Counted from the stretch's first letter, positions 10,768-58,721 are shown. The stretch is 64,000 bases of DNA from an uncultured bacterium (GCA_903839725.1 CAIMDG010000002.1:135739-199738), one strand, 5' to 3'. A program made the numbers and translations. Notes: a model not told the origin generated them from the sequence alone.

Positions 10768-10791
10768 GAAATATATTGTAACATTATTCTG

Positions 10792-31024: not shown

Positions 31025-31151
31025 TCGTCATGATTACCATTGCACCGTTCCCTCTCGTAGGGAACGGTTTTTTATTTCATCATTCTTGGACAAAAAATAT
31101 ATATGAGAAACGCCGCCCAGTTGAAGCCGGGCGGCGTGCGATAGTGAACTA

Positions 31152-36139: not shown

Positions 36140-37327
<1,188 letters not shown>

Positions 37328-39944: not shown

Positions 39945-41261
39945 CTAGTGGAACAAAGTTGCCTTGAGTGTATTGGGGATCGCCGCGTCTCTCAACATTA
40001 TTGCGGAAAGATTCGCGGTTGATGTTCCATAATTAATTCCATACACCTGAGGATATGCTGTTGATGATGGATATGAACCAGTTGCCAAGTAATTAGCAGA
40101 GAGGAACTTTGTTTGACCTGGGGCAATGTAGAAATATGATGAGCTGTCACCTGCCGAATCAGTACTCGTCATTCCTGTAGGCATTATGGTCAAAGTTGTT
40201 GTACCAATTGTCATAGGAAAAGCGGTTGGACCATCCTTAGATATGTACATTGGATAATTTCCCGCAGTTATCGAGGCATTGAATACAAATTTTTGAGCCG
40301 CAACAGCGTCAGTCGATGAAATACTTAATGAACCATATTTTACTCCGAGATTGGAAATGATTGGTGAAGAAATGCATGCGAAATTCACCGTCTCACTTTG
40401 TCCATCAACTGTTGTGATAGGTATATCAGTATTACTACAACTGTTGTACCAATACAAACGTGTTCCTTTTGGAGCAGTTATATTAGCAACACATGATCCA
40501 ACACCTGTACAAGTAAATGTAGCAACTGTTGTTGTAGAGGTTGTAGAAGTTGGTGATGCAACTTTTGTATAACACTTTTGTTCTGTAACAGCTCCATTAA
40601 ATATACACTTCACTTGTTCCGAAGTTACCGCGGGCGCCGATGATTTAATAACAAAATAGTTATCACTGATGTCATTTAATGCAATAAATGGATTTCTATT
40701 GATTACACTCTGACATTCGGCCGCACTCACTGTTGGACACAATGAAACCATGACCTTATATTTACCAGGAGCAACAAAAGACGGAATAGACCAAGAATAA
40801 TATGTATTCAATGTTATCAATGGATAATTATTCTCACCACCATTAATTGCATTTGTGACAATTTTTCCATTTGAATCAATCAAAGTAAGAGCAAATTTTG
40901 TAATGCCCTCTTCAATAACTGGAACATAGTTCCACTTAATCTTCACCGTACCACCAACATAATATGTCTCTCCACTATCTCCATTTGGTGAAACAACTGT
41001 AATAGGTACGACTGTACATGTATATCCACTTGGACATCCCTTTGGTTGAGGTGGGATAGGTGTACATACAAGATTTGTAGGACATACAACTCTTGATGAA
41101 GTAGAAACAGTTGAATTATTTAATGCAGTAGACGCTGCAGCAAGATTCGCATTACCAGAAATACCAGCAACTACTGACGAAGAGTATGATGTTGGCGAAG
41201 AATATATTGCAAAAGCAACGAGTGTTATAGCGAGAGTGTTTACAAAATGATTTTTTAACAT
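39945..41261 (-). CDS. Secreted surface protein (438 aa), paralog of the upstream gene
   Basis: N-terminus MLKNHFVNTLAITLVAFAIYSSPTSYSSSVVAGISGNANLAAAS and repeat VVSPNGDSGETYYVGGTVKIKWNY. Cys-rich near the N-terminus (CPTNLVCTPIPPQPKGCPSGYTCT). Confidence 0.65.
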   Translation of the reverse strand: MLKNHFVNTLAITLVAFAIYSSPTSYSSSVVAGISGNANLAAASTALNNSTVSTSSRVVCPTNLVCTPIPPQPKGCPSGYTCTVVPITVVSPNGDSGETYYVGGTVKIKWNYVPVIEEGITKFALTLIDSNGKIVTNAINGGENNYPLITLNTYYSWSIPSFVAPGKYKVMVSLCPTVSAAECQSVINRNPFIALNDISDNYFVIKSSAPAVTSEQVKCIFNGAVTEQKCYTKVASPTSTTSTTTVATFTCTGVGSCVANITAPKGTRLYWYNSCSNTDIPITTVDGQSETVNFACISSPIISNLGVKYGSLSISSTDAVAAQKFVFNASITAGNYPMYISKDGPTAFPMTIGTTTLTIMPTGMTSTDSAGDSSSYFYIAPGQTKFLSANYLATGSYPSSTAYPQVYGINYGTSTANLSAIMLRDAAIPNTLKATLFH

Positions 41262-41406: not shown

Positions 41407-41441
41407 ATAAAATCGGCACTCCACGATGTAGAGCGCCGATT
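41407..41441 (-). terminator. Intrinsic terminator after the channel-like gene
   Basis: aatcggcactc cacgatgta gagcgccgatt (11 bp stem, 1 mismatch), followed on the minus strand by tttt. Confidence 0.55.
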
Positions 41442-41471: not shown

Positions 41472-42551
41472 CTAGGTCCCGGAGACTGGGTTAAGAGCCC
41501 GCCAATCAACCACCTCATCTATCCGATGTTCCGCTATATAAAATAACGACATGCCCCCTCTGAGCATGGCATCAGCAGATGGATTAAGAATTGGCGCCGA
41601 TTCACACGACTGATCAGTTGTGTATCCAATAGCAATTGCTCGGTATTCCCCGTTGAAAATAGCGAGCACCTGACCAAACGGAATCGGCTGAACAAAGTCT
41701 GGAATGTTGATCCGGAAGTTCGTGCCCGGATGATTGATGCTCACAAGTTCCCGAATGAGCTGCGTCGAACCAGGATTGAGCGTTGCCTGAGCGATCAATG
41801 AAGACCTCAATGAAGTGACGCATTCAATGTGCGGATTGACCGCCTTGATGAAGCGCGCATATTCATGCTTCTCCAGATACACCACTATGTGGGCATCTTT
41901 GCGAGCCTTACTGTTAGCGACGATCGTTACCGCCACTGTTCGCTCATCAAGTTCGTGACCGCTAATAACAATGGTTTTCGCAGTAGACACGCAGGCCCGT
42001 TCGAGCACTTCATCCTCCGACGTATCTCCTTGAACAAACTCGACCATCCCCGGAAAAGGATTTTCCGTCACATGCCGAGTAACTAACACTATTGAATGAT
42101 TCCCGATATGGTCAGACACTAATTGTCTAACGAGGTCACCAGTTTCCCGTGGCCGATATCCGAGTAAAACAATATGATCTTTCATCTTTAATCTCACCAG
42201 ACCTTTCTTCTTTGTTTGGAATTTCTCGTGGACAACAGCGAGTGACTTGCACATGGTGGAGATAAAAAATAATCCCCCACCAAAGAAGCTCACCAATGCT
42301 GTTAAACGTCCACCAATTGTTGTGGGAGAATACCCACTATAACCACCTCGCATAACATCGTTCACGAAATACCACCAGTAAACTGATGGCGAAACAATGC
42401 TTGCGTGCGGCTCAAAATGTTCAACTGCAACCCACCCTCCAAAAAAGGAAGTGAGAAACAGAATCACGAGGTATCTCCATTTCAGGTTGATGACGAGGCT
42501 GTACACCACGTCAATAAATTTTCCTTGCACATTTTTCCTTTCATTTTTCAA
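41472..42551 (-). CDS. Ion-channel-like membrane protein with a cytoplasmic RCK/TrkA-like domain (non-canonical filter-like segment TTIGG)
   Basis: Two N-terminal TM helices flank GYSGYSPTTIGGRLTALVSFFGG. They are followed by a Rossmann-like segment IVLLGYRPRETGDLVRQL and a second RCK-like half. GC-richer than its neighbours. Confidence 0.5.
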   Translation of the reverse strand: MKNERKNVQGKFIDVVYSLVINLKWRYLVILFLTSFFGGWVAVEHFEPHASIVSPSVYWWYFVNDVMRGGYSGYSPTTIGGRLTALVSFFGGGLFFISTMCKSLAVVHEKFQTKKKGLVRLKMKDHIVLLGYRPRETGDLVRQLVSDHIGNHSIVLVTRHVTENPFPGMVEFVQGDTSEDEVLERACVSTAKTIVISGHELDERTVAVTIVANSKARKDAHIVVYLEKHEYARFIKAVNPHIECVTSLRSSLIAQATLNPGSTQLIRELVSINHPGTNFRINIPDFVQPIPFGQVLAIFNGEYRAIAIGYTTDQSCESAPILNPSADAMLRGGMSLFYIAEHRIDEVVDWRALNPVSGT

Positions 42552-42614
42552 GGTCCTACTACCCTTGCATTAAAAAACACAATAACATAGATATGTATTA
42601 TTGTAAAGATATAG

Positions 42615-42642
42615 AAAAGGGCGGTCGCAAGCGACCGCCCTG
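42615..42642. terminator. GC-rich perfect palindrome terminator at the left edge of the GC-rich block
   Basis: gggcggtcgc aa gcgaccgccc (10 bp perfect palindrome), followed on the minus strand by ttttc. Confidence 0.65.
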
Positions 42643-42658
42643 TGATAGAGACGTGTGA

Positions 42659-44272
42659 TCAATTCGACTTCCAAACCACACTCAGGTTGGAACGGACCGT
42701 TCCTTCCCAGCTCGTAACGTCGTGCGGGTTGACCCAGACAACGTTTTTGTAGAGCGCATCCGTCAGCGTCAGGTCCGGGGTGCTCCCCGCAATGAAACCC
42801 TTCTGGCCAGCGTGTTTTTTGTCCTTGTAGGTCACCACGGTGGTGAGCCAGAAAAAACGCCGTTTACCATCAATGTCCCTGACCCAGGGCCGGTTCTCGA
42901 CAGGCCTCGACTGTTCCCAGTCATACTGCTTGCGAGACTCCATGACCTTCGGAGGGATGGCACTCACACCGGTGAGTGCCTCATTGATTTTGTAATGCTG
43001 GTAGACACGCATCGGACCGATGCCGTCAGCCGGGACGAACATGCTTGTATTCAAACCCTGCTTGGTGTCGTGATACGGCTCCAAGGCGAAGTAGTGATAC
43101 AGCTTGTTCTCCGGCGAACCTTCCCGTTCAAAGCGAAAAAACGCCGTGAAGGGTTGATCGTTTTCATCACTCGGCAAATCCGGAATACGAATGTCTCCCT
43201 TGTGATACAAGGGCATCGGCGAGAAAAATCCCGCTTGGAACCGTAGCGACGCCGCAGCATACCGCGACACTTCATACGGCAGATTGTTCTGCCGCAGAAG
43301 GAACGGATGCTTGTGAATGTCAGCTGGAGAAATCCATTCCCCGTCGCCGACAAACCAGCTCTTGATCATTGCCCAAAGGGTGTCGTCTCCCTGACGAATA
43401 ACTTGGACACCACCGAATTCGGGCCAGACAAAGATGAGTCCCTTCCAGTGGATGAGCGAAACTACCTCGATCCAGTTGCCATTGTCGTCCTGAATGAACT
43501 TGATGTCGCGTGGACTGCATGAGAAGAACCTGAGAAGTCCCAACGAACGGATCGTCGAAACATCAGTATTTTTTCCCATAAGCAGATCTTCGCCGACCCT
43601 GAATGAGACCGGCACACGGTTTTGCCCAGAAAAATTCGGGCTCGCCGCAAGACCAGAAACATCCATGATTTCTTTTATGTGTCCGAAGAAGGACGGAATC
43701 GAATACGCTGGCTCGATAGCCATAGACCAACGGAACTCTTCTTTCCCGTTGTTGACGATCCGGACAAAGTCCGGCGTCGACACGCGTTCGACTTCCTTCA
43801 TTGCCTCACCGCCGAGGACCCGAATCGAATTGAGCGGTTGAATCCGCTCATGATCCGTAGTTGGCAATGTTGTGATGAAGGTTGGCTTCATCGAATGGTA
43901 ACGCAGGTAGAGCGTGATATACCTGAGTGGCGGCAACTCCATTTCGAGATGCGACACAACTCCGATAGTGGCAATCGCGATGACCGCGAAGACCAGCTTC
44001 CATTTACGACGAACCCACGCTGCGCAGAATGCCCATCCAATGATCAGCACCGAAATACATTCAGGACTGTGGACGCGGGCAATGACGATGTAGGGTTGCC
44101 AGTAAGCCCGAAAAACAAACGTCAACCATATGACCGTAGCCATGAGGATGAACGCTGCCTTGCGATGCCGACCTGACCACCCCTGAAACCGTGTTATTGA
44201 ATTACGCACCAGCCAATACAGCCAGCCGTGTTCCTTTTCGATTGGAACAGAATCTTTATTTTCTGGATCCAT
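42659..44272 (-). CDS. Hypothetical membrane-anchored protein (537 aa; 3 N-terminal TM helices plus a large soluble domain), GC-rich
   Basis: TM segments AAFILMATVIWLTFVF, VLIIGWAFCAAWV and LVFAVIAIATIGVV. No recognised family. Confidence 0.5.
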   Translation of the reverse strand: MDPENKDSVPIEKEHGWLYWLVRNSITRFQGWSGRHRKAAFILMATVIWLTFVFRAYWQPYIVIARVHSPECISVLIIGWAFCAAWVRRKWKLVFAVIAIATIGVVSHLEMELPPLRYITLYLRYHSMKPTFITTLPTTDHERIQPLNSIRVLGGEAMKEVERVSTPDFVRIVNNGKEEFRWSMAIEPAYSIPSFFGHIKEIMDVSGLAASPNFSGQNRVPVSFRVGEDLLMGKNTDVSTIRSLGLLRFFSCSPRDIKFIQDDNGNWIEVVSLIHWKGLIFVWPEFGGVQVIRQGDDTLWAMIKSWFVGDGEWISPADIHKHPFLLRQNNLPYEVSRYAAASLRFQAGFFSPMPLYHKGDIRIPDLPSDENDQPFTAFFRFEREGSPENKLYHYFALEPYHDTKQGLNTSMFVPADGIGPMRVYQHYKINEALTGVSAIPPKVMESRKQYDWEQSRPVENRPWVRDIDGKRRFFWLTTVVTYKDKKHAGQKGFIAGSTPDLTLTDALYKNVVWVNPHDVTSWEGTVRSNLSVVWKSN

Positions 44273-44292
44273 AATTCCTTTCAGTTGGCGCG

Positions 44293-44889
44293 TTAGCGCT
44301 TTTGAGTGAATTCCTTGATTCGATCTTCCGGGGATTTCCGCGGTTGCACCGGAATAACCGGAGCAGGTGCAGGAGCAGGAGTTGGTGGCGGTGTGCTTTT
44401 AGCATCCGACGATCCGTTACCATTATTCTGTGCCGCCGCTGTTCGTTTCTCGATCTCTTCATCAATTCTGTCACCAATTTTGTAAGCAATTTTACGCTTA
44501 TCCCATAATGGCCAGACGAAGTAACCGATAGCGAAGCCGAAGACCATCGCCGGAATTTCCACGAACCAAAGCACGAGCTCGACGAAAGCGTTCGAATGAA
44601 ATCCTGTGAAGTAAAACATTCCCAAGGTTTGCACTGTCGAAACTATTGTCGCAATCAGGAACTTGCGTCCCGTTGATTGTCCGTAGATGAGGCCGAATGC
44701 TTTTTCAGCTGGTTTCTTGTGCGTCAGGTCGTAGATTCCTTTCGCGATGTTCTGCAGATACTGACGATCCAAGATGTAAGTCAGGATCCCGAGTCCGAAG
44801 AAGAACAGCACCCAAGAGGTGCTATACAAGCGGGTATGTTCGATAATACTATTCATATAGGTGTGTGGTTTTGGGTTGTCGAGGTTCAA
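44293..44889 (-). CDS. Hypothetical 4-TM membrane protein with a Pro-rich C-terminus, GC-rich
   Basis: 198 aa with the tail TPPPTPAPAPAPVIPVQPRKSPEDRIKEF. Separated by 20 nt from the downstream gene, so probably co-transcribed with it. Confidence 0.5.
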   Translation of the reverse strand: MNLDNPKPHTYMNSIIEHTRLYSTSWVLFFFGLGILTYILDRQYLQNIAKGIYDLTHKKPAEKAFGLIYGQSTGRKFLIATIVSTVQTLGMFYFTGFHSNAFVELVLWFVEIPAMVFGFAIGYFVWPLWDKRKIAYKIGDRIDEEIEKRTAAAQNNGNGSSDAKSTPPPTPAPAPAPVIPVQPRKSPEDRIKEFTQKR

Positions 44890-44963
44890 CTAAATTGTTT
44901 GTTTCATGTTGAAACTCTGGCATACATATTACACATATTTGCAATATTGTCAATATTGATGCG

Positions 44964-46088
44964 TTGTGCTATTCTAGAGCCATGAAAACAACTTCCGCAC
45001 TTATTATTGGAGAAGGACACTTGGCGAATCGCGTTACAAAATTACTCGAAACAAGAGGCTGTGCCACCACACATCTTCCTGAATATAACAACGAGGCAAT
45101 TCATACATTTACAAGAATCTTCTTGCTCGATGACAAAGATGAATACAATTTGCAGACACTCATAACCCTTATATCGTTGAAAAAAGATATTCGTATCACC
45201 ACTTCACTATTCAATGAGAATATTGCTCCTCATATACGAGCAGTACATCCACATATCGAAATATTAAATCCAGCCAAAATTGCCGCACCTTCATTTGTTG
45301 ATGCTTTATATACCTCACTTGAACATAAGCTCACCTACCAAGCTACTCCACAAGAAAATATTTCACACAACACTTCTGACAATCTCATTACTATATTGAT
45401 TGGATCATTTATTGCAGTTATTGTCGCAGCGACAATATATTTTCACATAGCAGATACTCTTCCCTGGGTTGATGCTCTCTATTTCGTTATAGCAACAGTC
45501 ACTACAGTCGGCTATGGTGATATCAATCTTCTGAATTCAAGTACGTTCAGTAAAATTATCGATATTCTTCTTCTCTTGAGTTCAATGTTCTTCGTATGGA
45601 CTATATTCTCTTTGACGATAAATCATCTCATAAAAAGTCGTGAGCGTTTGGCTCTTGGTAGAAAAACATATCCATACACAAATCACGTTATTCTGTGTGG
45701 GCTCGGCAGACTCGGATACTTCATTGCACTTGAACTTATTGCGCGAAATGAAAAGATTATTGTTATAGAAAAGAATGAGAGTTCTGCGTATGCTGAAGAT
45801 ATTCGTAATCGTGGAATCCCCGTATATGTAGGTGACGCACGAATGCCTCAAGTGTTGAAAGATGTTGCAGTGAGTCGATCGAAGGCATTTATGTCTGTGA
45901 TCAACAATGACTATACCAATCTTGAAATCGGTCTCAATGCCCGCTCATTCAAACCCGGCCTTCGTCTTATTCTCAGAATATTTAATAAAGAAACAGTACA
46001 AAAAATAAAAGAAAGTTTGGATATACATCTCGCACTGAGTATGTCAGCTGTTGCTGATGAAGTATTTGCAGATACATTGAATAAATAG
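44964..46088 (+). CDS. Potassium channel (TVGYGD selectivity filter) with N- and C-terminal TrkA-N/RCK Rossmann domains
   Basis: ATVTTVGYGDINLL filter between two TM helices. HVILCGLGRLGYFIALEL and N-terminal LIIGEGHLANRV GxGxxG motifs. Low GC, like the host. Confidence 0.75.
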   Translation: MCYSRAMKTTSALIIGEGHLANRVTKLLETRGCATTHLPEYNNEAIHTFTRIFLLDDKDEYNLQTLITLISLKKDIRITTSLFNENIAPHIRAVHPHIEILNPAKIAAPSFVDALYTSLEHKLTYQATPQENISHNTSDNLITILIGSFIAVIVAATIYFHIADTLPWVDALYFVIATVTTVGYGDINLLNSSTFSKIIDILLLLSSMFFVWTIFSLTINHLIKSRERLALGRKTYPYTNHVILCGLGRLGYFIALELIARNEKIIVIEKNESSAYAEDIRNRGIPVYVGDARMPQVLKDVAVSRSKAFMSVINNDYTNLEIGLNARSFKPGLRLILRIFNKETVQKIKESLDIHLALSMSAVADEVFADTLNK

Positions 46089-46116
46089 CAGTTTGAAGAC
46101 TCATTCAAGGAAATAG

Positions 46117-46148
46117 AAAAGCCCCGTCGGAAAACCGGCGGGGCTTGA
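46117..46148. terminator. Bidirectional terminator between the K+ channel gene (+) and the AAA ATPase gene (-)
   Basis: aagccccgtcgg aaaa ccggcggggctt (stem with 1 mismatch). A second small palindrome acagacga tg tcgtctgt lies at 46155-46172. Confidence 0.6.
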
Positions 46149-46176
46149 ATGTTACAGACGATGTCGTCTGTCTCGA

Positions 46177-48135
46177 TCACGAATGTGCTTTTTTGTAGCG
46201 CTTTTCAGCCTCTACATTGACGCTGATGCGACCGACGGTCGCAGCTACATCACGCTCAAACTGAACGTTGGCGATTTGTGCCAAGGTGTCCAAATACCGC
46301 AGCGTTTCCTCGAAACGAATCGAGGCGAAGTCCAACCCTTTCATGTTGGCACGGAGGGCTTCCTTCAACATTTCGACCTTGCGGTCGTAAGGCTGCGTGT
46401 AGAACAACTTGGTGTCATCCAACCATTCGCTCGGCAAGTCGAAGTCGAAGATTCGAGCATCGATCGCAGATTGAATATTGCGAACATCGCGAGATGAGAA
46501 TCGCGGATACGATTCGCGCACATACGTGTAGAGGTGCCCGAAGAAGTCGTGTTCCGTTTTCTTCCAACCCTTGGTAGCCCGCTCAACCGCTTCGGCAATC
46601 TTCGGATCCTTGGCGACGTAAATACCACCATCTGTCTTTTGAAGCTCCGCCAAATTGTGCAGAGCCTTTTGTGCAGAGAGGTATTCATAACCCTTAGGAT
46701 CCGCCATGCCGACGAATTTCGAATCGAGCTTCGCGAGCTTGCGATGCCACATGAAGTCTTGATCGATGAAGTCCTCACGACTTTCCGCACCGTCAATCGG
46801 AAATCGAGACTGGACGCGCGAAAGCACGGCAGGATCGATGACCTCGGGCAGATTTGTGAAGAGCTCAATCACCCAATTACCGCGCTGAATGGCAGAAGCA
46901 CCTTCAGTGTTACGAAGGAATACAGAAATGACTTCCTTCACGCCCGCAGATACACCTTCGCGTGAGCGGTCCATGAAGTTATTTTCTGCATCATCAACCG
47001 GCGCATAGACGATTTTGTCGTCATCAGTCAACCGGCGCATCCAGTCTTCCATCCGTTCAGCAGAACCACCCTGGAAGGTGGAAACAACTGTTGCCGGCAT
47101 AGGCCAGAATAGGAACGGGATACTCAATCTTTCACACAACTCCTGGATCAAGGTGGCCGTCGCAGCGATCTGCAAACTTTTGCCAGTGCCAGGAAAGCCG
47201 AACCCCATCCGCGTGCCCGGGAATGAACCGAGCTCAAGAAACGGATTACGCTTGTGAATGACGTCATAGCAGCAGATCATCATCGCGAGGCGTTGAGCAT
47301 AATGCTTCGCACGCCGATTGCCGACGATGTCGCCGAAACCAACCTTGCGGAATTCGACGCTGACCGCTGCACCTTTTGACGTATTCTCGAAACCCTTGAC
47401 GATGAAGTCGGAATTTTCGAGCTTGTAGCTGACCTCGGTGAAGGGTTCGCTGAATGTCAGCGAACTTTTCTTCCCATGAATTTCATTGGTAACAGATTCG
47501 AAATACAGCAAAGCAAGCTTCACTAATTCCAAACCGTTGTTCACAATGCCGGCATCTGCTGAGCAGTAGCGAGCAAAGTAATACACCACGCTGACAAGAC
47601 CGTTTTGAGGAGTCTTATATGCAAGTTCCGGAACACCCGGAAAATCGAGTTTCATAGTCGCCACTTTATCAGCCTGATATCGTGACAATTCGTAAACGAT
47701 GTAAGACGCCGCACCGAACATTGCGATTGCAGAAGCTGTTGCTCCCTTGGCGTTGAACTCGGCCAACTGGCCATTGCCCAAGCTTTTGGAAGCATTCTGC
47801 TGTCGCATAATATCCAGGCCGGCACGTTTTTCATATTGCTGGGCCAAATAAAGTCCCATACATATGCCGTTACGAACCGTAGAGATGACAGTGTTCACCT
47901 CGGGGGTGAGAATCGCACTACTGCCACTGATTTCGTTGGCCAAGGCAAAGATACTGACCGTATCCGTGACCTGTTCTGAAGGAGGGATCGGTTTGATCGA
48001 CAGAGTTTCCCCTGAACGAATAACCGTTTTTGTAGCCCTCCACTGTGTCTGCATCATTGTTGCATCTGCCCACTTCATGAACGCCTCCATATCGGCGGAT
48101 GTAATGGGGAGATATGAGTCTGCTGCATTTGTCAT
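46177..48135 (-). CDS. Classical AAA-family ATPase (652 aa) with an uncharacterised roughly 280 aa N-terminal domain and a C-terminal extension
   Basis: GDIVGNRRAKHYAQRL...GFGFPGTGKSLQIAATATLIQEL (Walker A) and TVVSTFQGGSAERMEDWMRRL (SxxGESEK-like). The Walker B region IVYAPVDDAEN is atypical. GC-rich. Confidence 0.7.
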   Translation of the reverse strand: MTNAADSYLPITSADMEAFMKWADATMMQTQWRATKTVIRSGETLSIKPIPPSEQVTDTVSIFALANEISGSSAILTPEVNTVISTVRNGICMGLYLAQQYEKRAGLDIMRQQNASKSLGNGQLAEFNAKGATASAIAMFGAASYIVYELSRYQADKVATMKLDFPGVPELAYKTPQNGLVSVVYYFARYCSADAGIVNNGLELVKLALLYFESVTNEIHGKKSSLTFSEPFTEVSYKLENSDFIVKGFENTSKGAAVSVEFRKVGFGDIVGNRRAKHYAQRLAMMICCYDVIHKRNPFLELGSFPGTRMGFGFPGTGKSLQIAATATLIQELCERLSIPFLFWPMPATVVSTFQGGSAERMEDWMRRLTDDDKIVYAPVDDAENNFMDRSREGVSAGVKEVISVFLRNTEGASAIQRGNWVIELFTNLPEVIDPAVLSRVQSRFPIDGAESREDFIDQDFMWHRKLAKLDSKFVGMADPKGYEYLSAQKALHNLAELQKTDGGIYVAKDPKIAEAVERATKGWKKTEHDFFGHLYTYVRESYPRFSSRDVRNIQSAIDARIFDFDLPSEWLDDTKLFYTQPYDRKVEMLKEALRANMKGLDFASIRFEETLRYLDTLAQIANVQFERDVAATVGRISVNVEAEKRYKKAHS

Positions 48136-48159
48136 AAGTTAATCTTTCTTTTGGTTGAG

Positions 48160-48193
48160 AAAAGGGGCGGGAAGAAAACTTCCCGCCCCCAGT
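48160..48193 (-). terminator. Intrinsic terminator after the coiled-coil protein gene
   Basis: ggggcgggaag aaaa cttcccgcccc (11 bp perfect stem), followed on the minus strand by tttt. A second hairpin aacggca aaacaa tgccgtt at 48198-48217 overlaps the stop codon. Confidence 0.7.
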
Positions 48194-48215
48194 TTGCAAC
48201 GGCAAAACAATGCCG

Positions 48216-49625
48216 TTACGGTTTTTCGTTACCACCGCCGGGGGGCGGATTGCCGTCACCTGATGGCGGAGGAGGAGCTGAGAACAGGGAGCTTCCCGTG
48301 TTAACGCCTTCGTAACCTTCCGACATCATGGTTAGCATCGTGTCAGCGCGATCGCGTGTGCGCTTGAAGTGCTTCCTGAGCGCCTCGCAGATGACTTCGT
48401 TTTCACGAAGCAGACCCGGTTGTTCTTCCAGATCCTCCATGAGTGCATTGTCAGCCGCGACGATCGCCGCCGCACTGCGTTCCGACATGTTCCGATCGGT
48501 TGTGATACCAATCTTCTTGATCAAACCATCGAACTTTTGGTCCGCAATGGTCTGCATGTTCACCAGTGACGCCGGATACATCTTGGCGCGCTCTTCGGTG
48601 TCAGACTTGAGACGCGCAATGCGCGCCTTGTGCCGACCTTGAAGTTTGATCGCGGTGATGTGCTCCAGCTCGAGCAACTTGAGGTTCCGTTCCTTCGACT
48701 GGAAGTAGGTCAGGGCGACCTCGCGATCACTGCGGATTTGCTCCACTTGTGCCACGAGGTTCGAAATGACTTTTTCTTGAGCCGAGTAGTCCGGAGTGCC
48801 GTTGGCAAAGGTGCTGAGCGTCGCCTGCTCTGTTTCCAGGGCAGCCTCGTTCTTTTCGAGGTCAGCAGTAAGTTTCTCCATCTGCTTTGCGGCAAGTTCC
48901 TTTTCACGCAACGCCACTGTCCGGCGCTCGTCGAGAATACCGATCTGCACTTGCAGTTCTTCGACACGAACCGTCATGATTTGCACGGTCTTGTTGCTCA
49001 AGCTGACGAAGGCATCGACGGACTTCTCCATCGTTGCATCCATCAAACGTTGACGAACACGAGAGGCCATGTCAACTTCGGCCGCCGCAATCCCCTGCTG
49101 GTCGAGTTCGAGCTGCCGTTCGAGTTCGGCGGCAGCGCGATCACGAATCCCAAAGGGATTGAACCAGCTGGCTTTTTTGGATTCCAAAGCCTGTTTGGTC
49201 TTTGCGTGTTTGTTCTTGGCGTTCTGGACCAAGGCCAACTCTTCAGCGCTGGGTTCGACCAGGGCCTTGAATTGTTGGTCCATGCCTTCGGTGACCTGTT
49301 GCAAGGCTTCCATTGAGCCCGCGAAATCACGTTCATCGCGTTCGGCCTGAACCTTTACGGATTCGAATGTCGATCCCGTAATACGAGCCTGCACCGTTGC
49401 ACGATCTTGGGCACCATCCTTGATGCCTTCTTCGACGATTTCGTCGAGGCGAGCCGCCGTGCGACGACGAGTGCTTGCGACGTTTGCCCGGCTATCCGCC
49501 ATGACTTGGTTGCCCAAGTTGAGGATACCGGCCAATCCGCCACCGTCACCGTCGCCAGGGCCGCTACCATTTGTTTGGGTTGATCCAGGAGGTTTACTCC
49601 CAGGAGTTCTACGAGTTGGTGTCAT
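48216..49625 (-). CDS. Coiled-coil protein (469 aa) with Pro/Gly-rich termini; tentatively TelA-like (toxic anion resistance family)
   Basis: Long heptad-rich central region (…LQVQIGILDERRTVALREKELAAKQMEKLTADLEKNEAALETEQ…). The termini are PGSKPPGSTQTNGSGPGDGDGGG and PPPPSGDGNPPPGGGNEKP. Weak resemblance to TelA segments (KKASWFNPFG, MSERSAAAIVAADNALMEDLEE). Confidence 0.45.
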   Translation of the reverse strand: MTPTRRTPGSKPPGSTQTNGSGPGDGDGGGLAGILNLGNQVMADSRANVASTRRRTAARLDEIVEEGIKDGAQDRATVQARITGSTFESVKVQAERDERDFAGSMEALQQVTEGMDQQFKALVEPSAEELALVQNAKNKHAKTKQALESKKASWFNPFGIRDRAAAELERQLELDQQGIAAAEVDMASRVRQRLMDATMEKSVDAFVSLSNKTVQIMTVRVEELQVQIGILDERRTVALREKELAAKQMEKLTADLEKNEAALETEQATLSTFANGTPDYSAQEKVISNLVAQVEQIRSDREVALTYFQSKERNLKLLELEHITAIKLQGRHKARIARLKSDTEERAKMYPASLVNMQTIADQKFDGLIKKIGITTDRNMSERSAAAIVAADNALMEDLEEQPGLLRENEVICEALRKHFKRTRDRADTMLTMMSEGYEGVNTGSSLFSAPPPPSGDGNPPPGGGNEKP

Positions 49626-49796
49626 AATTCAATCCGTGGTTCTATGTTTGGGTTGAGAGGTTTGTGTTGCACATTCGCTTTTCAAAGGACTAAACGAACG
49701 CACTACTGGAAAAGACCATAGCAAACTTATACGCTCTTGTCAAGAGAGTCATTTACTACAGCTTTACGTCTCCCGTCGACCTCAAAAGAGGGCCTT

Positions 49797-49830
49797 GACA
49801 AAGCCGTATTTCTGTATAGTATGTTGATTG
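49797..49830 (+). promoter_or_regulatory. Near-consensus sigma70-like promoter for the 49865..50398 gene, plus a divergent -35 palindrome
   Basis: ttgacaaagccgtatttctgtatagtatg has a TTGACA -35 and a TATAGT/TATGTT -10. Upstream, the palindrome ctcttgtcaagag (49734-49746) places a TTGACA on the minus strand 17 nt from TATGGT, a candidate promoter for the coiled-coil gene. Confidence 0.5.
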
Positions 49831-49864
49831 AGTCTCAAACCTCGAACATTACCAAAACCATATT

Positions 49865-50398
49865 ATGAAAGCACTGCTCCTCACTCGGCGCACTCGTATT
49901 CCTGCATCGATTCGTCAATGCCTGAATGCCGGTGCAAGCACATTTGTCGTCACGGAAGTTACTGGCGGTAACCATTACCAAATCGCAGAATCCATTCGAA
50001 GACACATCCGGTATTCTGCTCCGACTATTATCGCCATCGATGGCGAATATGGAGCCACCGATGCGGCAGCGTGGACTCAATTGTCAAAGCTTGATCCCGA
50101 ATCACTTCGCCTGCGCATCTTGTCAGATCAAGGTCTGCCCAAAAGTCTCGAACTTCTCAAGATCGCCCACGCCGTCAAGGGAAACTTAACCGGCGTCGTG
50201 ATCTTCATTGAAAAGCCGAGCGACACACTTCGCACCGAGCTCCGTCGCATCGGCGCACTCTGGGTCTGGCCGACGTTGAACAAGCCGACCGGTCTCGAAT
50301 CTTCATTCTACAAGATCATTACCGGTATCCACCGCTTCACCGCCGGCTTCAAAGATCTCATTGATGTCGCTGTCGGCGAAATCACCGGCAAGAAATAG
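49865..50398 (+). CDS. Hypothetical protein (177 aa), GC-rich
   Basis: ORF with good coding composition. It has its own promoter-like site, and a terminator follows at 50419-50450. Confidence 0.45.
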   Translation: MKALLLTRRTRIPASIRQCLNAGASTFVVTEVTGGNHYQIAESIRRHIRYSAPTIIAIDGEYGATDAAAWTQLSKLDPESLRLRILSDQGLPKSLELLKIAHAVKGNLTGVVIFIEKPSDTLRTELRRIGALWVWPTLNKPTGLESSFYKIITGIHRFTAGFKDLIDVAVGEITGKK

Positions 50399-50418
50399 CG
50401 TCACTCATTTCCCATCAT

Positions 50419-50450
50419 CCCTCTGGAATTTTCCGGAGGGGTTTTTATTT
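50419..50450 (+). terminator. Intrinsic terminator after the 49865..50398 gene
   Basis: ccctctgg aatttt ccggaggg gtttttattt. Confidence 0.65.
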
Positions 50451-50483
50451 CACCACTATAAGAACAACAAAATATATACAAAC

Positions 50484-50518
50484 AAAAAACACCAACCCTT
50501 TATGAGCTGGTGTTTTTT
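50484..50518 (-). terminator. Intrinsic terminator after fusA
   Basis: aaaaaacacca accctttatgagc tggtgtttttt, a bidirectional A/T-flanked hairpin. Confidence 0.65.
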
Positions 50519-50532
50519 GAATAATGTAAATA

Positions 50533-52677
50533 CTATTTTCTCTTTTCAACGATAGCCTTCTCAACATTTCCTGGAACCACTTCATAGTGATCGAATTCCA
50601 TCATGGCACTTCCCTGACCTGATGTCATAGAGCGAAGTTGTGTGGTATATCCGAACATTTCTGACAATGGAACCTTGGCATGAATAGCAATCGCTTGACC
50701 ACGAGGTTCTGAACCTTCAACCTGTCCACGCTTTGAAGCAATAGAACCGTTGACGTCACCCATATACTTTTCTGGTGCGATAACTTCGAGCTTCATGATA
50801 GGTTCGAGGATAACTGGCTTCGCGCGCTTTGCAGCATCCTGGAATGCTTGTGATGCAGCGATCTTGTAGGCAATTTCTGATGAGTCAACATCGTGATACG
50901 AACCGAAAGTAAGTTCACAAGAAACATTCACCATTTTGAAACCAGCAACAATACCGCGATCGAGAGCTTCGCGAACACCCTTTTCAACTGCTGGAATGAA
51001 TTCATTTGGAATAACACCTCCCTTGATAGAGTTGATGAATTCAAAGTCATCATAACGCTTAACGTTCTTTGGAATCTTTTCACCCTCAACGAGAGGTTCC
51101 ATAGGTTTGAGGGTGAGACGGACGTGACCGTACTGACCTTTACCTCCTGTCTGCTTGATATATTTGTGTTCAGCTTCAGCAGTATTCATGATTGTCTCAC
51201 GATATGCTACCTGAGGTTCACCAACATTTGCTTCAACACCGAATTCACGCTTCATACGATCAACCATGATTTCGAGGTGGAGTTCTCCCATTCCCGAAAT
51301 AATAGTCTCGCCTGTTTCAGGGTTTGAAGTGATACGGAATGTTGGATCTTCGTTACCAAGTTTCTTCAAAGCCATACCCATTTTTTCTTGGTCAGCCTTT
51401 GTCTTTGGTTCAATGCGGAGAGAGACCACAGGTTCCATGAATTTGATAACTTCGAGAATGATAGGATTGGCTTCATCACAGAATGTGTGAGAAGTAAGAG
51501 CATCTTTCAAACCAACGGCTGCAGCAATTTCCCCCGCGAACACTTTCTTCACTTCTTCACGCTTGTCAGCCTGGAGACGAACGATACGGCCGAGACGTTC
51601 CTTCTTGCCTGTCGTAGCATTGTAAATATATGTTCCTGCTTCGATCGATCCTGAATACACACGGAAGAATGTGAGTGCTCCGACGAATGGATCGTTTTGA
51701 AGTTTGAATGCGAGAGCTGAGAAAGGTTCAGTATCAGATGCATGACGTTCGATCTCGCCTCCAGTATTTGGATCAATACCCTTGATAGCTGGCATATCGA
51801 GTGGAGATGGGAGGTAATCAACAACTGCGTCGAGAACCAACTGAACTCCAACGTTCTTCAAAGCTGAACCGGTAAAGACTGGGAAAATCTTGTTTGCAAT
51901 AACTGCTTTACGAGCAACTACTTTGAAATCTGCGATAGAAATTTCTTTACCATCAAGGAAGTTCTGCATAGCAACATCATCTGTTTCAACAACCTTTTCA
52001 ATCATTTCTGCACGATATTTCTTTGCATCTTCGAGCATATCTGCAGGAATCTCCTTTTCGATAATGTTAATACCCTTCTCACCGTCGAAGAAGTACGCCT
52101 TCATTTTCAAAAGATCAACAACACCTTCATGATTAGACTCATTTCCGATAGGAAGTTGGAAACGAACTGCATTCTTATTCAAGCGCTCAAGAATAGACTT
52201 GTATGAACGTTCGAATGATGCACCCATGCGGTCCATCTTGTTGATGAAACACAAACGAGGAACCTTGGCTTCATCGGCATAACGCCAGTTAGTCTCAGAC
52301 TGAGGTTCAACGCCGGCCACGCCGTCGAAGACCACAACCGCACCGTCGAGCACGCGGAGAGAACGCTTCACTTCTACAGTAAAGTCGATGTGTCCTGGTG
52401 TATCGATGATGTTGAAACGAACTTTCTTTGAAACATCTTCCTTGGGCATATACGAAGGATTCCAAAAACAAGTGATCGCAGCCGCAGTAATAGTAATACC
52501 GCGTTCACGTTCCTGTTCCATCCAGTCAGTAGTTGTTTCACCTTCGTGAACTTCACCAATCTTGTGGATCATACCTGTGTAATACAGGATACGTTCTGAA
52601 GTTGTAGTTTTGCCGGCATCAATGTGAGCAATGATACCGAAGTTGCGTACCTTATCGAGTGAGTAATCGCGATTCAT
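50533..52677 (-). CDS. fusA: Elongation factor G
   Basis: AHIDAGKTTTSERILYYTG, DTPGHIDF and NKMDR motifs. 714 aa. Confidence 0.95.
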   Translation of the reverse strand: MNRDYSLDKVRNFGIIAHIDAGKTTTSERILYYTGMIHKIGEVHEGETTTDWMEQERERGITITAAAITCFWNPSYMPKEDVSKKVRFNIIDTPGHIDFTVEVKRSLRVLDGAVVVFDGVAGVEPQSETNWRYADEAKVPRLCFINKMDRMGASFERSYKSILERLNKNAVRFQLPIGNESNHEGVVDLLKMKAYFFDGEKGINIIEKEIPADMLEDAKKYRAEMIEKVVETDDVAMQNFLDGKEISIADFKVVARKAVIANKIFPVFTGSALKNVGVQLVLDAVVDYLPSPLDMPAIKGIDPNTGGEIERHASDTEPFSALAFKLQNDPFVGALTFFRVYSGSIEAGTYIYNATTGKKERLGRIVRLQADKREEVKKVFAGEIAAAVGLKDALTSHTFCDEANPIILEVIKFMEPVVSLRIEPKTKADQEKMGMALKKLGNEDPTFRITSNPETGETIISGMGELHLEIMVDRMKREFGVEANVGEPQVAYRETIMNTAEAEHKYIKQTGGKGQYGHVRLTLKPMEPLVEGEKIPKNVKRYDDFEFINSIKGGVIPNEFIPAVEKGVREALDRGIVAGFKMVNVSCELTFGSYHDVDSSEIAYKIAASQAFQDAAKRAKPVILEPIMKLEVIAPEKYMGDVNGSIASKRGQVEGSEPRGQAIAIHAKVPLSEMFGYTTQLRSMTSGQGSAMMEFDHYEVVPGNVEKAIVEKRK

Positions 52678-52697: not shown

Positions 52698-53094
52698 TTA
52701 AATCTCAAATTTTAGTAATCTTACTATTTTTCTTCATTGTAATTATACTCGCTCCCAATATATTTGATATCTCAACAGTCTCCTTAAGAATCGTTTCTGC
52801 TATGTCTTTTTGAAGCTTTCCTGTATCACGAGCCAATCCTATCCATAATTTAGACTCATTTGCAGACTTTAAACTATACGTGTAGAAATTGATGTAATCT
52901 TTTCTAGAACTTGCACCTTTAGCTTCAACAACATTCGCAACAACCGATGTTCCACTTCTTATCAACTGTCTTGCAATCACCTGACCTGAAATATCTTTAG
53001 AGAACTTATCGACGCATCTCACAATCTCAATGGCATACTTGTATAATCTTGCATCAATTTCCTTCTTCGTCATTTTTGAGATTTGAGATTTAAT
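52698..53094 (-). mobile_element. Putative mobile cassette: four-helix-bundle gene bounded by 14 bp perfect terminal inverted repeats
   Basis: attaaatctcaaat at 52698-52711 and its exact reverse complement atttgagatttaat at 53081-53094. The left repeat includes the gene's stop codon and the right repeat lies 8 nt upstream of its ATG. Extra partial tandem copies of tttgagattt occur at 53075-53091. The cassette interrupts the conserved rpsG-fusA junction. Confidence 0.55.
52705..53073 (-). CDS. Four-helix-bundle protein (TIGR02436-like; 23S rRNA intervening-sequence protein family)
   Basis: MTKKEIDARLYKYAIEIVRCVDKFSKDISGQVIARQLIRSGTSVVANVVEAKGASSRKDYINFYTYSLKSANESKLWI matches the four-helix-bundle family pattern (SxxANIAEG-like SGTSVVANVVEA, FxxFLxIAxGSxxE-like). 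Confidence 0.75.
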   Translation of the reverse strand: MTKKEIDARLYKYAIEIVRCVDKFSKDISGQVIARQLIRSGTSVVANVVEAKGASSRKDYINFYTYSLKSANESKLWIGLARDTGKLQKDIAETILKETVEISNILGASIITMKKNSKITKI

Positions 53095-53109: not shown

Positions 53110-53580
53110 TTACCAAGCAAAGTGAGCAAAAGCCTTGTTTGCTTCCGCCATCTTGTGAACGTTTTCACGCTTCTTAACTGCTTCTCCTTCATTCTTTGAT
53201 GCTGCGATGATTTCGTCAGCGAGTTTGAGGTGTATAGGCTTTCCCTTCTTTCCACGAGCCGCTTCAACGATCCACTTCATAGAAAGTGAATTCTTGCGTT
53301 CTGGGCGAACTTCACGAGGAACTTGGTAGTTTGCTCCACCGACACGGCGTGAACGAACTTCCATAGCTGGTGCAGTATTCTTGAGAGCCGCCTCGAAAAC
53401 TTCGAGAGGATTCTCATTTTTTGTCTGTTCTTTAATCGCAATCATACAATCAGCAACAATCTGGCGAGCAATGTTCTTCTTGCCTGACTCCATAATATAG
53501 TTAGTAAGCTTGGCGAGTTTCAATGACTGATATGTCACATCTGGCTTGAGCTCACGCTTGAGGTTTAATTTTCTTCGCAT
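53110..53580 (-). CDS. rpsG: 30S ribosomal protein S7
   Basis: 156 aa with the pattern RRVGGANYQVPREVRPERKNSLSMKWIVEAARGKKGKPIHLKLADEIIAASKNEG. Confidence 0.93.
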   Translation of the reverse strand: MRRKLNLKRELKPDVTYQSLKLAKLTNYIMESGKKNIARQIVADCMIAIKEQTKNENPLEVFEAALKNTAPAMEVRSRRVGGANYQVPREVRPERKNSLSMKWIVEAARGKKGKPIHLKLADEIIAASKNEGEAVKKRENVHKMAEANKAFAHFAW

Positions 53581-53591
53581 AGTAGTAGGGG

Positions 53592-54008
53592 TTATTTAGC
53601 TGCTTTTGGCTTCTTGTTACCATATTGACTGCGACCTTTTCTGCGCTTATCTACGCCAGCTGCATCGAGCACACCGCGAACAACTGAGTAACGGAGACCA
53701 ACGTCTTTGACGCGACCGCCACGAAGGAGGACCACTGAGTGTTCCTGGAGGTTGTGACCTTCACCTGGAATATATGCAGTAACTTCAAGACCATTTGTAA
53801 GACGAACACGAGCAATCTTGCGGATAGCTGAGTTAGGCTTCTTTGGAGTCTTTGTTGTAACTTTCACGCACACGCCGCGCTTGAATGGAGCCGGGAAGAA
53901 AACTGGTCGGTTCTTGACCGAGTTGAAGGTGCGGGTGAGCGCAATAGACTTCGACTTGCGGGTGAAGCGAGCACGATTCTTCTTGATTAACTGGTTGATT
54001 GTAGGCAT
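53592..54008 (-). CDS. rpsL: 30S ribosomal protein S12
   Basis: [10 protein letters not shown]... [18 protein letters not shown] ... [15 protein letters not shown] is the canonical S12. Confidence 0.95.
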
Positions 54009-57253: not shown

Positions 57254-57281
57254 AAAAAAGAGTAGGTACCTACTCTTTTTT
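57254..57281. terminator. Bidirectional terminator between sodA (+) and comEC (-)
   Basis: aaaaaagagtaggtacctactctttttt, a perfect 9 bp palindrome with A/T runs. Confidence 0.75.
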
Positions 57282-58721
57282 GTATCGCTTGATACACACG
57301 TATACAACTGTAAATAACACATAAAAACAAACAACCCACCATCCAGAAAATGCGGGTACGTGTGCAGATGCAAAAGGTACTCGAGCAAAATTTCTGACCA
57401 TCAATAATTCATATGAAAGTAATAGGTGTGAAACCCATCCAAACAAATGTGCTAATGGCATCCAAATGAAACCACTCGCTCCGGTTAGAAAAACGAATAG
57501 CATTGTCACGGGAATAAAAGGAAGCACGAGAATATTCACGACCATTCCAATAATAGAAATTTGCCCCATCATATAAAGAATGTATGGTGAAACAAATATT
57601 TGTGTGGCAATGGTAGAGGCAACGATACCGCGCATACCAAACTTTTCTGGAATAAATCCAAGCTTACCTTCAATAGGAGATGCCAGAAGAATAAGCCCGA
57701 GTGTTGCTAAAAATGAAAGTTGGAATGAAGGGTCGTGCAATAAGATCATCGGGTTTTGTATGAGCATGAGAAGAGCTGCAAAGATGAGTGCACGCGAAAC
57801 ATTGTATTCACGACGAATCAAATCAGCGGATAATGCAACACTCGCCATGAAGCACGAACGAACAACGGTTGCTCCACCACCAACGAGTACACCAAATAAG
57901 GCAATGCCAATACCTCCTACACTGATACCCCACACCCGTGGCAAGAATGAAAGAATACGCCGAAGAGCATCGCCAACCACCGTAATATTATATCCAGATA
58001 AAACCACAATATGGATCAAACCAACTGTACGAAAATCATCAAGTAAATCTTTTCCCAGTGCCGCTTTTTCACCAACAACCAAACCTGATGCAAGTGCAGC
58101 ATGCGGTTCCCCGAGAGCTTGTTCGAGATTTGATACAAACCCCTTTTTGAGGGTAAACAGCACCGATGAGACAGTATCAGAAATACCTTGAATAGAAAAC
58201 ACCGTGAAAGCTCTCTGTGAAGAGCTTTCACGGCTGTCTTTATATACAACTGTATCAATTTCTACCTCAGCACTCTTCATTTCATAAAACACACCATCCT
58301 TCGCAAGATACCCTTTATAATCAAATGAACGCCCTCCTCCACTCGAGAAATTAAATGGTTTGTTTATTTTTCCCACAAATGAAACGTGTTCTCCAAATGA
58401 AAATTGTGGATACAATTTTGTTTTTACACGAATCGATACATTACCTCCACATGCGACCATATTGTTTTGCTCAGCAAGCATAGAACTGCGCGCAGATGGT
58501 TTTGTTGATGAACTATTCACTATAAATATGCTCTCAGCATCAACCACAAATACCTGACCAGAATCTTTGCGCTCTGGTTCACCAGTAACAATTCCAAAAC
58601 CTTGTACTTCATGCTTCAAACACGCGGAAATAGGAGGTGCGTTATATTGCAACGAAGTGAATACACGAAATAATGCAGCACCAATAAACAAAGACCAAAA
58701 TATATAGACTCCTTTACTCAT
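57270..58721 (-). CDS. comEC: ComEC/Rec2-like DNA-uptake channel protein lacking the C-terminal metallo-beta-lactamase domain
   Basis: 483 aa. An N-terminal TM helix and OB-like region, then a polytopic competence domain (…GLIHIVVLSGYNITVV…). It ends in a TM helix with no beta-lactamase-like domain. Confidence 0.65.
   Translation of the reverse strand: MSKGVYIFWSLFIGAALFRVFTSLQYNAPPISACLKHEVQGFGIVTGEPERKDSGQVFVVDAESIFIVNSSSTKPSARSSMLAEQNNMVACGGNVSIRVKTKLYPQFSFGEHVSFVGKINKPFNFSSGGGRSFDYKGYLAKDGVFYEMKSAEVEIDTVVYKDSRESSSQRAFTVFSIQGISDTVSSVLFTLKKGFVSNLEQALGEPHAALASGLVVGEKAALGKDLLDDFRTVGLIHIVVLSGYNITVVGDALRRILSFLPRVWGISVGGIGIALFGVLVGGGATVVRSCFMASVALSADLIRREYNVSRALIFAALLMLIQNPMILLHDPSFQLSFLATLGLILLASPIEGKLGFIPEKFGMRGIVASTIATQIFVSPYILYMMGQISIIGMVVNILVLPFIPVTMLFVFLTGASGFIWMPLAHLFGWVSHLLLSYELLMVRNFARVPFASAHVPAFSGWWVVCFYVLFTVVYVCIKRYKKE

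Follow-up and report, generated by a model that had tools for sequence, protein, structure and literature searches.

Transfer between Patescibacteria is reported to be the main mode of horizontal gene transfer in this group (PMC12455944). We analyzed a 64,000-nucleotide stretch of DNA (GCA_903839725.1 CAIMDG010000002.1:135739-199738), hereafter the window, whose source is a low-GC bacterium of the Paceibacterota, within the Candidate Phyla Radiation (CPR). In this window the translation genes fusA and tuf are separated by a GC-rich block carrying a cassette of five genes, cc469, AAA652, tm198, tm537 and rck359, preceded by a divergent small gene, p177. The block resembles the islands and transfers surveyed in Patescibacteria (PMC12455944) in being a multi-gene accessory block of deviant composition, in lying in a streamlined CPR genome and in having its nearest relatives in Patescibacteria. 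It differs from them in the absence of integrase, tRNA and flanking repeats, in its position inside the str-S10 super-operon, in being common to two species and in having its own tightly conserved promoters. As a genomic island it is ordinary, inter-Patescibacteria transfer being already documented (PMC12455944). Its cargo is noteworthy: a widespread gene cluster, four of whose proteins, out of five or six, lack a family assignment, a structure and a name, and for which no publication was found.

The distance from fusA to tuf measures 13,205 bp. The first-pass annotation of this DNA had described a canonical fusA-tuf adjacency broken by about 13 kb; the length was right, and adjacency proved to be the wrong baseline, since the gap varies in size phylum-wide. 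The genes of the gap and its two flanks are listed below, with GC content at third codon positions given as GC3. Throughout the text, genes lie on the minus strand unless the plus strand is mentioned.

50533-52677, minus strand: fusA (EF-G), upstream flank of the insertion, of host composition (GC3 0.39).
49865-50398, plus strand: p177, 177 amino acids, member of a rare family, divergent from the cassette (GC3 0.58).
48216-49625, minus strand: cc469, first cassette gene, soluble protein with low-complexity Gly/Pro-rich ends (GC3 0.62).
46177-48135, minus strand: AAA652, AAA+ ATPase (GC3 0.58).
44964-46088, plus strand: Kch374, K+ channel with two transmembrane helices (2TM) and an RCK domain, between AAA652 and tm198 (GC 0.375, GC3 0.31).
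44293-44889, minus strand: tm198, small membrane protein (GC3 0.54).
42659-44272, minus strand: tm537, three N-terminal transmembrane (TM) helices and a beta-rich domain of about 420 amino acids (GC3 0.63).
41472-42551, minus strand: rck359, fifth cassette gene, 2TM plus RCK/TrkA_N (intermediate GC3, 0.48).
39945-41261, minus strand: surf438, surface-type protein with Kre9_KNH Ig-like domains (GC3 0.25).
37579-39894, minus strand: surf771, surface-type protein with Kre9_KNH Ig-like domains (GC3 0.25).
36140-37327, minus strand: tuf (EF-Tu), downstream flank, followed by rpsJ and the S10 operon.

Base composition was compared with the 64-kb window as baseline. The GC content was 0.512 at 42659-44889 and 0.521 at 46177-50398, against 0.414 in the remaining window, 0.389 in the surface-protein genes and 0.375 in the K+ channel gene. 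Both the GC-rich stretches and the host-like low GC of the embedded channel gene had been claimed from a first reading of the sequence, and both claims were confirmed. The shift in GC is abrupt at the gene boundaries of the block. The GC3 of p177, cc469, AAA652, tm198 and tm537 ranged from 0.54 to 0.63, and that of the three genes of a second GC-rich block (28984-32357, described below) from 0.57 to 0.61. The other 57 open reading frames (ORFs) of the window had a mean GC3 of 0.37 (standard deviation 0.065) and a maximum of 0.483, which is the value for rck359. The difference between these eight GC-rich genes and the 57 others was significant (Mann-Whitney p = 2.8e-6). Comparison of codon usage, which had been proposed as a check, indicated that the block is compositionally foreign to its host. 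Its relative synonymous codon usage correlated poorly with that of ordinary host genes (r = 0.18), better with that of three genomes of GC 0.55-0.56 in which the cassette is compositionally native (loci L004, L089 and L090; r = 0.65-0.72) and best with that of the second GC-rich block (r = 0.83).

We examined the site in other Paceibacterota by an EF-G scan with one genome per species, which gave 80 loci with EF-G 59-87% identical. Synteny had been put forward earlier as a further check, and its outcome was divided: a sister species keeps the block in conserved order, and none of the 80 other species representatives had cassette genes within 10 kb of fusA. The fusA-tuf gap was shorter than 300 bp in only 6 of the 59 informative loci, with a median of 1.1 kb. 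It ranged from 113 bp to 9.3 kb, the largest value measured, and six loci had no tuf within 8-10 kb. The gap is thus variable throughout the phylum, in agreement with the hotspot inside the ribosomal super-operon postulated in the first-pass annotation, and is a routine insertion site in Paceibacterota. In the closest relatives it contains large ORFs with host-like low GC3. Because surf438 and surf771 have low GC3 and the gap of these cassette-free relatives is filled with ORFs of the same kind, the surf genes are the native type of occupant, outside the island, and the cassette is the addition.

Three separate assemblies contained the same arrangement, with 99.9-100% identity along 15-22 kb, and the gene was present on 12 contigs. 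A sister species, recovered from other samples on contigs of 87-224 kb, had its genes between fusA and tuf in the same order. Its EF-G and EF-Tu are 98% identical to those of the window, and its ordinary proteins 67-79%. It also had the same GC mosaic, with a cassette GC3 of 0.60-0.65 and a K+ channel GC3 of 0.37. Divergence at four-fold sites (d4) between the two sisters was 0.6-1.65 for the block genes, 0.85-1.1 for ordinary host genes and 0.2-0.35 for translation genes. The shared order, the shared mosaic and the host-like d4 indicate that the common ancestor of the sisters already had the block, which has diverged with the genome since. The insertion is therefore old, not recent. The mosaic structure reported earlier was also confirmed: the K+ channel gene, host-like in GC, is present in the sister genome (72% identity) and in no other cassette locus.

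We searched for relatives of the cassette proteins. AAA652 had 1,747 homologues, the closest being that of the sister species (77% identity). The next homologues were 56-62% identical, the sole source-named one coming from Paceibacterota, and further ones (about 47%) came from Verrucomicrobiota, Bacteroidota, Bdellovibrionota and Deinococcota. The pattern was the same for tm537, and across phyla both proteins are 42-50% identical. This check of taxonomic affinity, also among those proposed, placed the nearest relatives within the same phylum and revealed no distant source group. The cassette is a conserved cluster, usually of six genes, in CPR, Verrucomicrobiota, Bacteroidota, Bdellovibrionota and Deinococcota-like genomes, which had escaped the first reading. 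The full form, found outside CPR, has the order cc, a protein of about 375 amino acids, AAA, DUF6638, a small TM protein and a TM protein of about 530 amino acids. In the short form, found in one Paceibacterota clade (counted in the window and in L001, L004, L095 and L148), the 375-amino-acid protein and DUF6638 are missing and an rck gene is attached. The position of Kch374 in the short form corresponds to that of DUF6638 in the full form. The cc469 orthologues adjoin the AAA gene at all cassette loci, the tm198 orthologue always immediately precedes that of tm537, and the rck orthologue adjoins tm537 in L001, L004, L095, L096 and L148. Locus L089, which is outside the tree, has the same AAA-tm198 adjacency and its sequence ends ahead of rck. 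In neighbour-joining trees of AAA and tm537 the short form was one clade, whose sister was a full-form copy with rck. The other members of this clade sit in genomes of GC 0.47-0.56 in which the cassette is compositionally native.

Elsewhere the cassette was found in at least four neighbourhoods (argS/Zip, DEAD helicase, FKBP-LOG and S24/MacB), those of the short form differing per lineage. In three other lineages full-form copies lay near translation genes: one directly upstream of rpsL (L103 589-8522), one about 2.7 kb upstream of tuf-rpsJ in a sequence of GC 0.65 (L124 249-3717) and one near the S10 operon (L121 5811-11578). A link between cassette and ribosomal operons was considered and rejected, because the excess, about 3 informative loci out of 25 where about 1 would be expected with genomes of 1 Mb, is not significant.

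The cassette was then compared with its flanks at 31 loci. The difference in GC3 (cassette minus flank) was +0.14 to +0.30 in six of the eight hosts with a flank GC3 below 0.40, was never under -0.09 and fell with rising host GC3 (r = -0.68). Cassette GC3 tracked that of the host over 0.39-0.82 and was fully host-like in three low-GC hosts (L103, L119 and L008). These fully ameliorated copies indicate that GC-rich codons are not required by the cassette. Its entry into low-GC genomes appears to have happened repeatedly, with mid- or high-GC carriers as the source. Two Paceibacterota lineages, L095 (1411-8742) and L090 (8486-11974), had a common FKBP-LOG-cassette synteny. GC3 was 0.36-0.39 in the flanks against 0.65-0.72 in the cassette of L095, and 0.62-0.66 against 0.78-0.85 in L090. 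Amino-acid identity between the two lineages was similar for the flanks (58-73%) and the cassette (60-69%).

The explanation that we favour, and consider fairly probable, is an old lateral insertion without mobility genes into a phylum-wide hotspot, from a GC-richer member of the Paceibacterota, which was later split by the K+ channel gene. The cassette would have entered the fusA-tuf gap once, ahead of the split of the sister species, probably from such a GC-richer source. As no integrase is involved, we infer that the route may have been recombination after DNA uptake. The K+ channel gene, of host composition, would have been inserted, or retained, between AAA652 and tm198, splitting the cassette into two transcription units, each predicted to start at a tightly conserved divergent promoter region. 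Since the island proteins have their closest relatives within this phylum, the event looks, from sequence comparison, like a CPR-to-CPR transfer, not an import from a distant group. The GC3 excess of the block would then fairly probably be a signature of transfer whose decay is still incomplete. Of the laterally acquired island proposed in the first-pass annotation, the foreign composition, the mosaic structure and the hotspot were retained; its left boundary and the TelA label of one gene were not.

Several observations weigh against this explanation. No integrase or transposase Pfam domains and no flanking direct repeats or att-like sites were found around the island, and the window contains no tRNA gene, its sole tmRNA gene lying 30 kb off. 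In a crude two-state model of four-fold sites, about 56% of the GC excess would have been lost per lineage since the split, and the implied ancestral GC content at these sites (GC4), about 0.85-1.0, is at the upper edge of the range of the cassette anywhere (0.78-0.88). The L095 cassette has a GC3 of 0.70 amid flanks of 0.37, despite synteny and equal divergence with L090, which would be consistent with an independent transfer into a homologous site or with a force holding GC3 up. Finally, the block could in principle have originated elsewhere in the same genome lineage.

Such a force is at the centre of an alternative in which the cluster is native and vertically inherited, its high GC3 being actively maintained by GC-biased gene conversion or by codon selection, for example for slow translation of membrane or toxic proteins. 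The compositional contrast would then be silent on origin. The persistence of the excess in both sisters despite a d4 of about 0.6-1.65 (about 0.9 for ordinary host genes) argues for maintenance, as do the ancestral GC4 of at least about 0.85 that neutral decay would require and the syntenic L095 and L090 cassettes, GC-rich in both in spite of very different flanks. However, the cassette tracks host GC3 and is host-like in L103, L119 and L008, which argues against an intrinsic optimum, and the unrelated metabolic block at 28984-32357 shares its codon usage (r = 0.83). A different aminotransferase (31% identity) at the site of that second block in the sister genome speaks for gene flux rather than for selection on particular genes, and the cassette is not found near fusA in 80 related species. 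We consider this alternative unlikely. The sharp GC change at gene boundaries could also be produced by an assembly or binning chimera, or by the remnant of a prophage, an integrative and conjugative element or a plasmid. A chimera was ruled out by the three concordant assemblies, identical at 99.9-100% over 15-22 kb, and by the same arrangement in the sister species. For a mobile element, we found no PHROG matches, no relatives in 2.9 million viral contigs or 50,697 phage records, and no integrase, transposase or tRNA; the plasmid matches were only remote, stand-alone haloarchaeal homologues of tm537. An artefact or mobile element is accordingly very improbable. The cassette GC excess, which on the favoured reading of an old transfer has outlasted a speciation, offers a means to study the rate of amelioration of foreign DNA in CPR genomes.

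We next considered the cassette proteins individually. AAA652 belongs to the classical clade of AAA+ ATPases (Pfam AAA, E = 9e-7), as its early assignment to the AAA ATPases had anticipated. Its one ATPase domain occupies residues 305-450 or so; some 300 unique amino acids precede it, and a helical region of some 200 forms the C terminus. The Walker A motif GFPGTGKS (residues 313-320) was invariant in 32 homologues. The aromatic pore loop S352-T-F-Q-G-G-S358 aligns with KYIGES of Rpt4. Little or no variation was seen at T427-N428, which includes the sensor-1 Asn, or at R440 and R444, the arginine fingers of the second region of homology. The Walker B region contains an invariant D381-D382-x-E384, in which D382 aligns at the position of the catalytic Glu of Rpt4. 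Profile searches of the PDB matched Rpt4, Cdc48 and Vps4. The AlphaFold2 model (pLDDT 83.8) gave Foldseek matches to p97, Cdc48, AFG2, Rpt, Msp1 and spastin, including substrate-engaged p97, Cdc48 and Rpt. AAA652 is therefore like the described members of the clade (Cdc48/p97, Rpt, Vps4/SKD1, Msp1, spastin and the FtsH family) in GFPGTGKS, STFQGGS, the sensor-1 Asn and the Args. However, its matches to them are weak (profile E about 1e-3) and restricted to residues 315-450, and its Walker B is DD-x-E, not DE. The N-terminal 300 and C-terminal 200 amino acids or so match nothing, no NCBIfam family covers the protein, and it has no MIT, double-psi-barrel N or protease domain.

The product of cc469 is probably a coiled-coil protein, to judge from the look of its sequence and from its matches, which were weak and to coiled-coil families only. 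A homologue search returned just four matches because coiled-coil words swamped the candidate list, and the alignment was assembled from locus translations. The protein is 42% identical to its sister orthologue, against 77-86% for AAA652, tm537 and rck359 and 98% for EF-G, a divergence that denotes very weak constraint or diversifying selection. The first-pass annotation had called it TelA-like. TelA is a soluble, largely helical protein that is not known to pair with an AAA ATPase. It is similar in size to cc469, at about 400-470 amino acids, but none of 10 cc469 orthologues matched Pfam TelA (PF05816), even at E <= 1. No other Pfam family and no PDB sequence matched cc469 either, and the label was abandoned.

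For tm198, about three TM helices were read by eye, the last of them followed by a tail rich in Pro and Ala; a Kyte-Doolittle scan flagged only one segment. Besides the ATPase, tm537 is the most conserved component of the cassette, and its beta-rich domain probably lies outside the cytoplasm. Remote homologues of this outer domain (hhalign probability 97%) were found on haloarchaeal megaplasmids (L150 5293-6906 and L151 5233-6810) as stand-alone proteins of 525-537 amino acids with no AAA partner nearby. They contain the motifs PEFGGV, NDQPF and EPY-QGL and are annotated as hypothetical or 'ABC transporter permease'. PDB profile searches with tm537, DUF6638 and the 375-amino-acid protein found nothing, and no paper mentioning DUF6638 was found in the literature. 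Beyond the AAA domain, the cassette had no Pfam, PDB, PADLOC or literature match.

Both RCK proteins of the gap were compared with 2TM K+ channels of the MthK/Kch type. Kch374 is a regular member, with Ion_trans_2 (E = 2e-9), TrkA_N (E = 8e-22) and a TVGYGD filter, in line with its earlier identification as a K+ channel. It is a later insert of host composition, not a cassette member. The rck359 protein is like these channels in its 2TM, pore-helix and RCK layout, and its sequence suggests derivation from a K+ channel; its TrkA_N match is weak (E = 9e-6). Unlike them, it has SGYSP at the filter position. This sequence or close variants were found in the six cassette orthologues in place of TVGYGD. 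Selectivity, and even channel function, are therefore uncertain for rck359 and its orthologues.

The small gene p177, which precedes the cassette, is no cassette member elsewhere. A search of 1.84 billion proteins gave 26 representatives of its family at E <= 1e-3, and Pfam gave no match. At loci other than those of the window organism itself (L091-L093), tblastn found it only in L001 of the sister genome; sister-genome loci L002 and L094 also have a gene at this position. A CheY-like receiver fold, suspected from the alignment pattern, was rejected (hhalign probability 0.13 against CheY), and a PDB profile search gave nothing relevant.

Taken together, the AAA motifs and fold matches, the gene order conserved across phyla, the TM topology and the 94-96% conserved promoter regions suggest, with low confidence, that the product of the cassette is probably an AAA+ machine associated with the membrane. 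In this model the ATPase, predicted from its clade to be hexameric, would act on a partner by threading or remodelling it; the likeliest partners are the fast-evolving cc469 and the cytoplasmic tail of tm198. Its site of action would be a tm198-tm537 complex with the large tm537 domain facing outward, and the channel-like rck359 would link the machine to ions or ligands. Such an assembly would point to an accessory role in the envelope or in stress rather than to a role in translation. Against it, function is derived here from domains only, and no homologue of four of the five proteins has been characterised. The cassette is alike to ESCRT-III/Vps4 or PspA-type pairs in having an AAA gene beside a helical-looking protein and membrane proteins, an analogy qualified by the absence of detected similarity of cc469 to Snf7, PspA or Vipp1 and of a detected MIT domain. 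We propose, tentatively and short of calling it probable, that the cassette is a new, horizontally mobile, membrane-embedded AAA+ machine without any characterised relative, with one very fast-evolving partner, a K-channel-derived subunit with a rewritten filter and, in CPR, expression from an almost invariant regulatory region, maybe for envelope remodelling, export or conflict.

Alternatively, the cassette could be specifically an undescribed anti-phage or conflict system with an ATPase sensor or motor and membrane effectors, which would explain its sporadic distribution, repeated transfer, hotspot location and fast-evolving component. It is found patchily in several phyla, GC-rich copies of it have reached low-GC hosts repeatedly, and cc469 is 42% identical between genomes with 98% identical EF-G and 77-86% identical AAA and tm537. 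Its parts also recall the ATPase-plus-transmembrane layout of abortive-infection systems. However, PADLOC matched none of the six proteins, and no restriction-modification, CRISPR or toxin-antitoxin genes were seen among the neighbours at the loci inspected. Moreover, the 42-50% identity of AAA and tm537 across phyla would be more expected of an accessory machine with a housekeeping-like role, and fast divergence is usual for coiled-coil proteins. We regard an anti-phage role as quite unlikely.

The boundaries and putative control regions of the block are as follows:

50519-50483, minus strand: terminator after fusA, convergent with the next one; the pair forms the right boundary of the GC-rich block.
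50417-50442, plus strand: terminator after p177.
49682-49858: divergent promoter region, with TTGACA-17-TATGGT on the minus strand (49743-49715) ahead of cc469-AAA and TTGACA-16-TAGTAT on the plus strand (49795-49822) ahead of p177.
44849-44988: divergent promoter region, with TTGACA-16-TAATAT on the minus strand (44953-44926) ahead of tm198 and TTGTCA-17-TATTCT on the plus strand ahead of Kch374.
42618-42641, minus strand: hairpin terminator with a 10-bp stem containing 8 G-C pairs, after tm537, internal to the cassette.
41411-41441, minus strand: terminator with a 14-bp stem, after rck359, the true left end of the cassette.

The hairpins with GC stems announced in the first-pass annotation are thus present at their positions, but the one at 42618-42641 is not the left boundary, as the cassette runs on through rck359. 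This terminator is internal because rck359 follows tm537 in the other short-form copies that extend past tm537. The near-consensus TTGACA promoters placed at about 49734-49830 were found on both strands. The number of promoter-like sites in the region (35) did not exceed that in shuffled sequences (30 +/- 5.5), but these two lie in a strongly conserved stretch of 177 nucleotides.

The two divergent promoter regions are far better conserved than the genes that they drive and are candidate regulatory DNA for CPR. The 177 nucleotides at 49682-49858 were at least 94% identical to the sister genome, against 51% and 68% for the flanking genes in nucleotides, and the intergenic stretch between Kch374 and tm198 was 96% identical. 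The genes adjoining these stretches ranged from 51 to 75%, the other intergenic regions from 45 to 72%, and the terminator stretch at 50417-50519 was at 54%. Both -35 boxes of the 49682-49858 region lie within palindromes, CTCTTGACAAGAG and GGCCTTGACAAAGCC, and the tm198 and Kch374 promoters have a common palindrome, ATATTGTCAATAT. From these features, the conserved stretches are probably operator-promoter regions. A structured RNA or riboswitch in the 177 nucleotides was considered and rejected, with no Rfam match at E <= 1 and folding z-scores of -0.1 and -0.8. In the 5' untranslated region of cc469 there is a small hairpin whose arms are conserved and whose loop differs, as seen in two sequences only.

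A 17-nucleotide motif, GGTTTTTATTTCAYCAY, occurs only at 31067-31083 and 50440-50456, that is, twice in the window against 0.1 expected. Each copy lies just past the terminator hairpin of a plus-strand gene (p167 and p177, respectively) of a GC-rich block, and the convergent intergenic regions of these two genes have 70 of 135 alignment columns identical. As both copies are inside terminator tails, the motif was rejected as an att-like repeat.

The second GC-rich block (28984-32357) lies between rplB and rpsS, is bounded by terminators and has a GC content of 0.516, with GC3 of 0.57-0.61. It contains three genes:

Minus strand: Orn/DAP/Arg-type decarboxylase dependent on pyridoxal phosphate, 438 amino acids.
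Plus strand: p167, 167 amino acids, no Pfam match.
Minus strand: class I/II aminotransferase, 401 amino acids.

At the rplB-tm169 site, the sister genome (L094 20638-21608, corresponding to about 31152-32357 of the window) has a different GC-rich aminotransferase, with a GC3 of 0.58 and 31% identity. This suggests gene replacement, and the differing aminotransferases at one site indicate continuing gene flux at the gaps of the ribosomal super-operon. A low-GC membrane gene beside this block (32508-33017) is conserved in relatives.

Upstream of fusA, the gene order starts with the str operon:

53592-54008, minus strand: rpsL.
53110-53580, minus strand: rpsG.
52705-53073, minus strand: low-GC gene for a four-helix-bundle '23S rRNA intervening sequence' (IVS) protein, between rpsG and fusA.

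The last of these is not present in the sister genome and represents another indel inside the str operon. Downstream of the cassette, surf438 and surf771 have a common conserved N-terminal leader, M-x-KNH-x-x-N...YSSPT, and a repeat (39763-39804 / 41127-41168). They are just 29-36% identical to a single counterpart in the sister genome and are thus fast-evolving surface genes within the ribosomal super-operon. The tuf gene has its own promoter-like site, TTGACA-16-TAGTAT, at 37480-37453. The tmRNA gene (10789-11180, minus strand), with the tag peptide AKSTVSPYFGQKDFAFALV, is the sole Rfam or ARAGORN match in the window. A ComEC-type competence gene (57270-58721; DUF4131/Competence domains in the annotation of a matching contig) lies about 7 kb from the island, which is consistent with DNA uptake as a route of gene gain.

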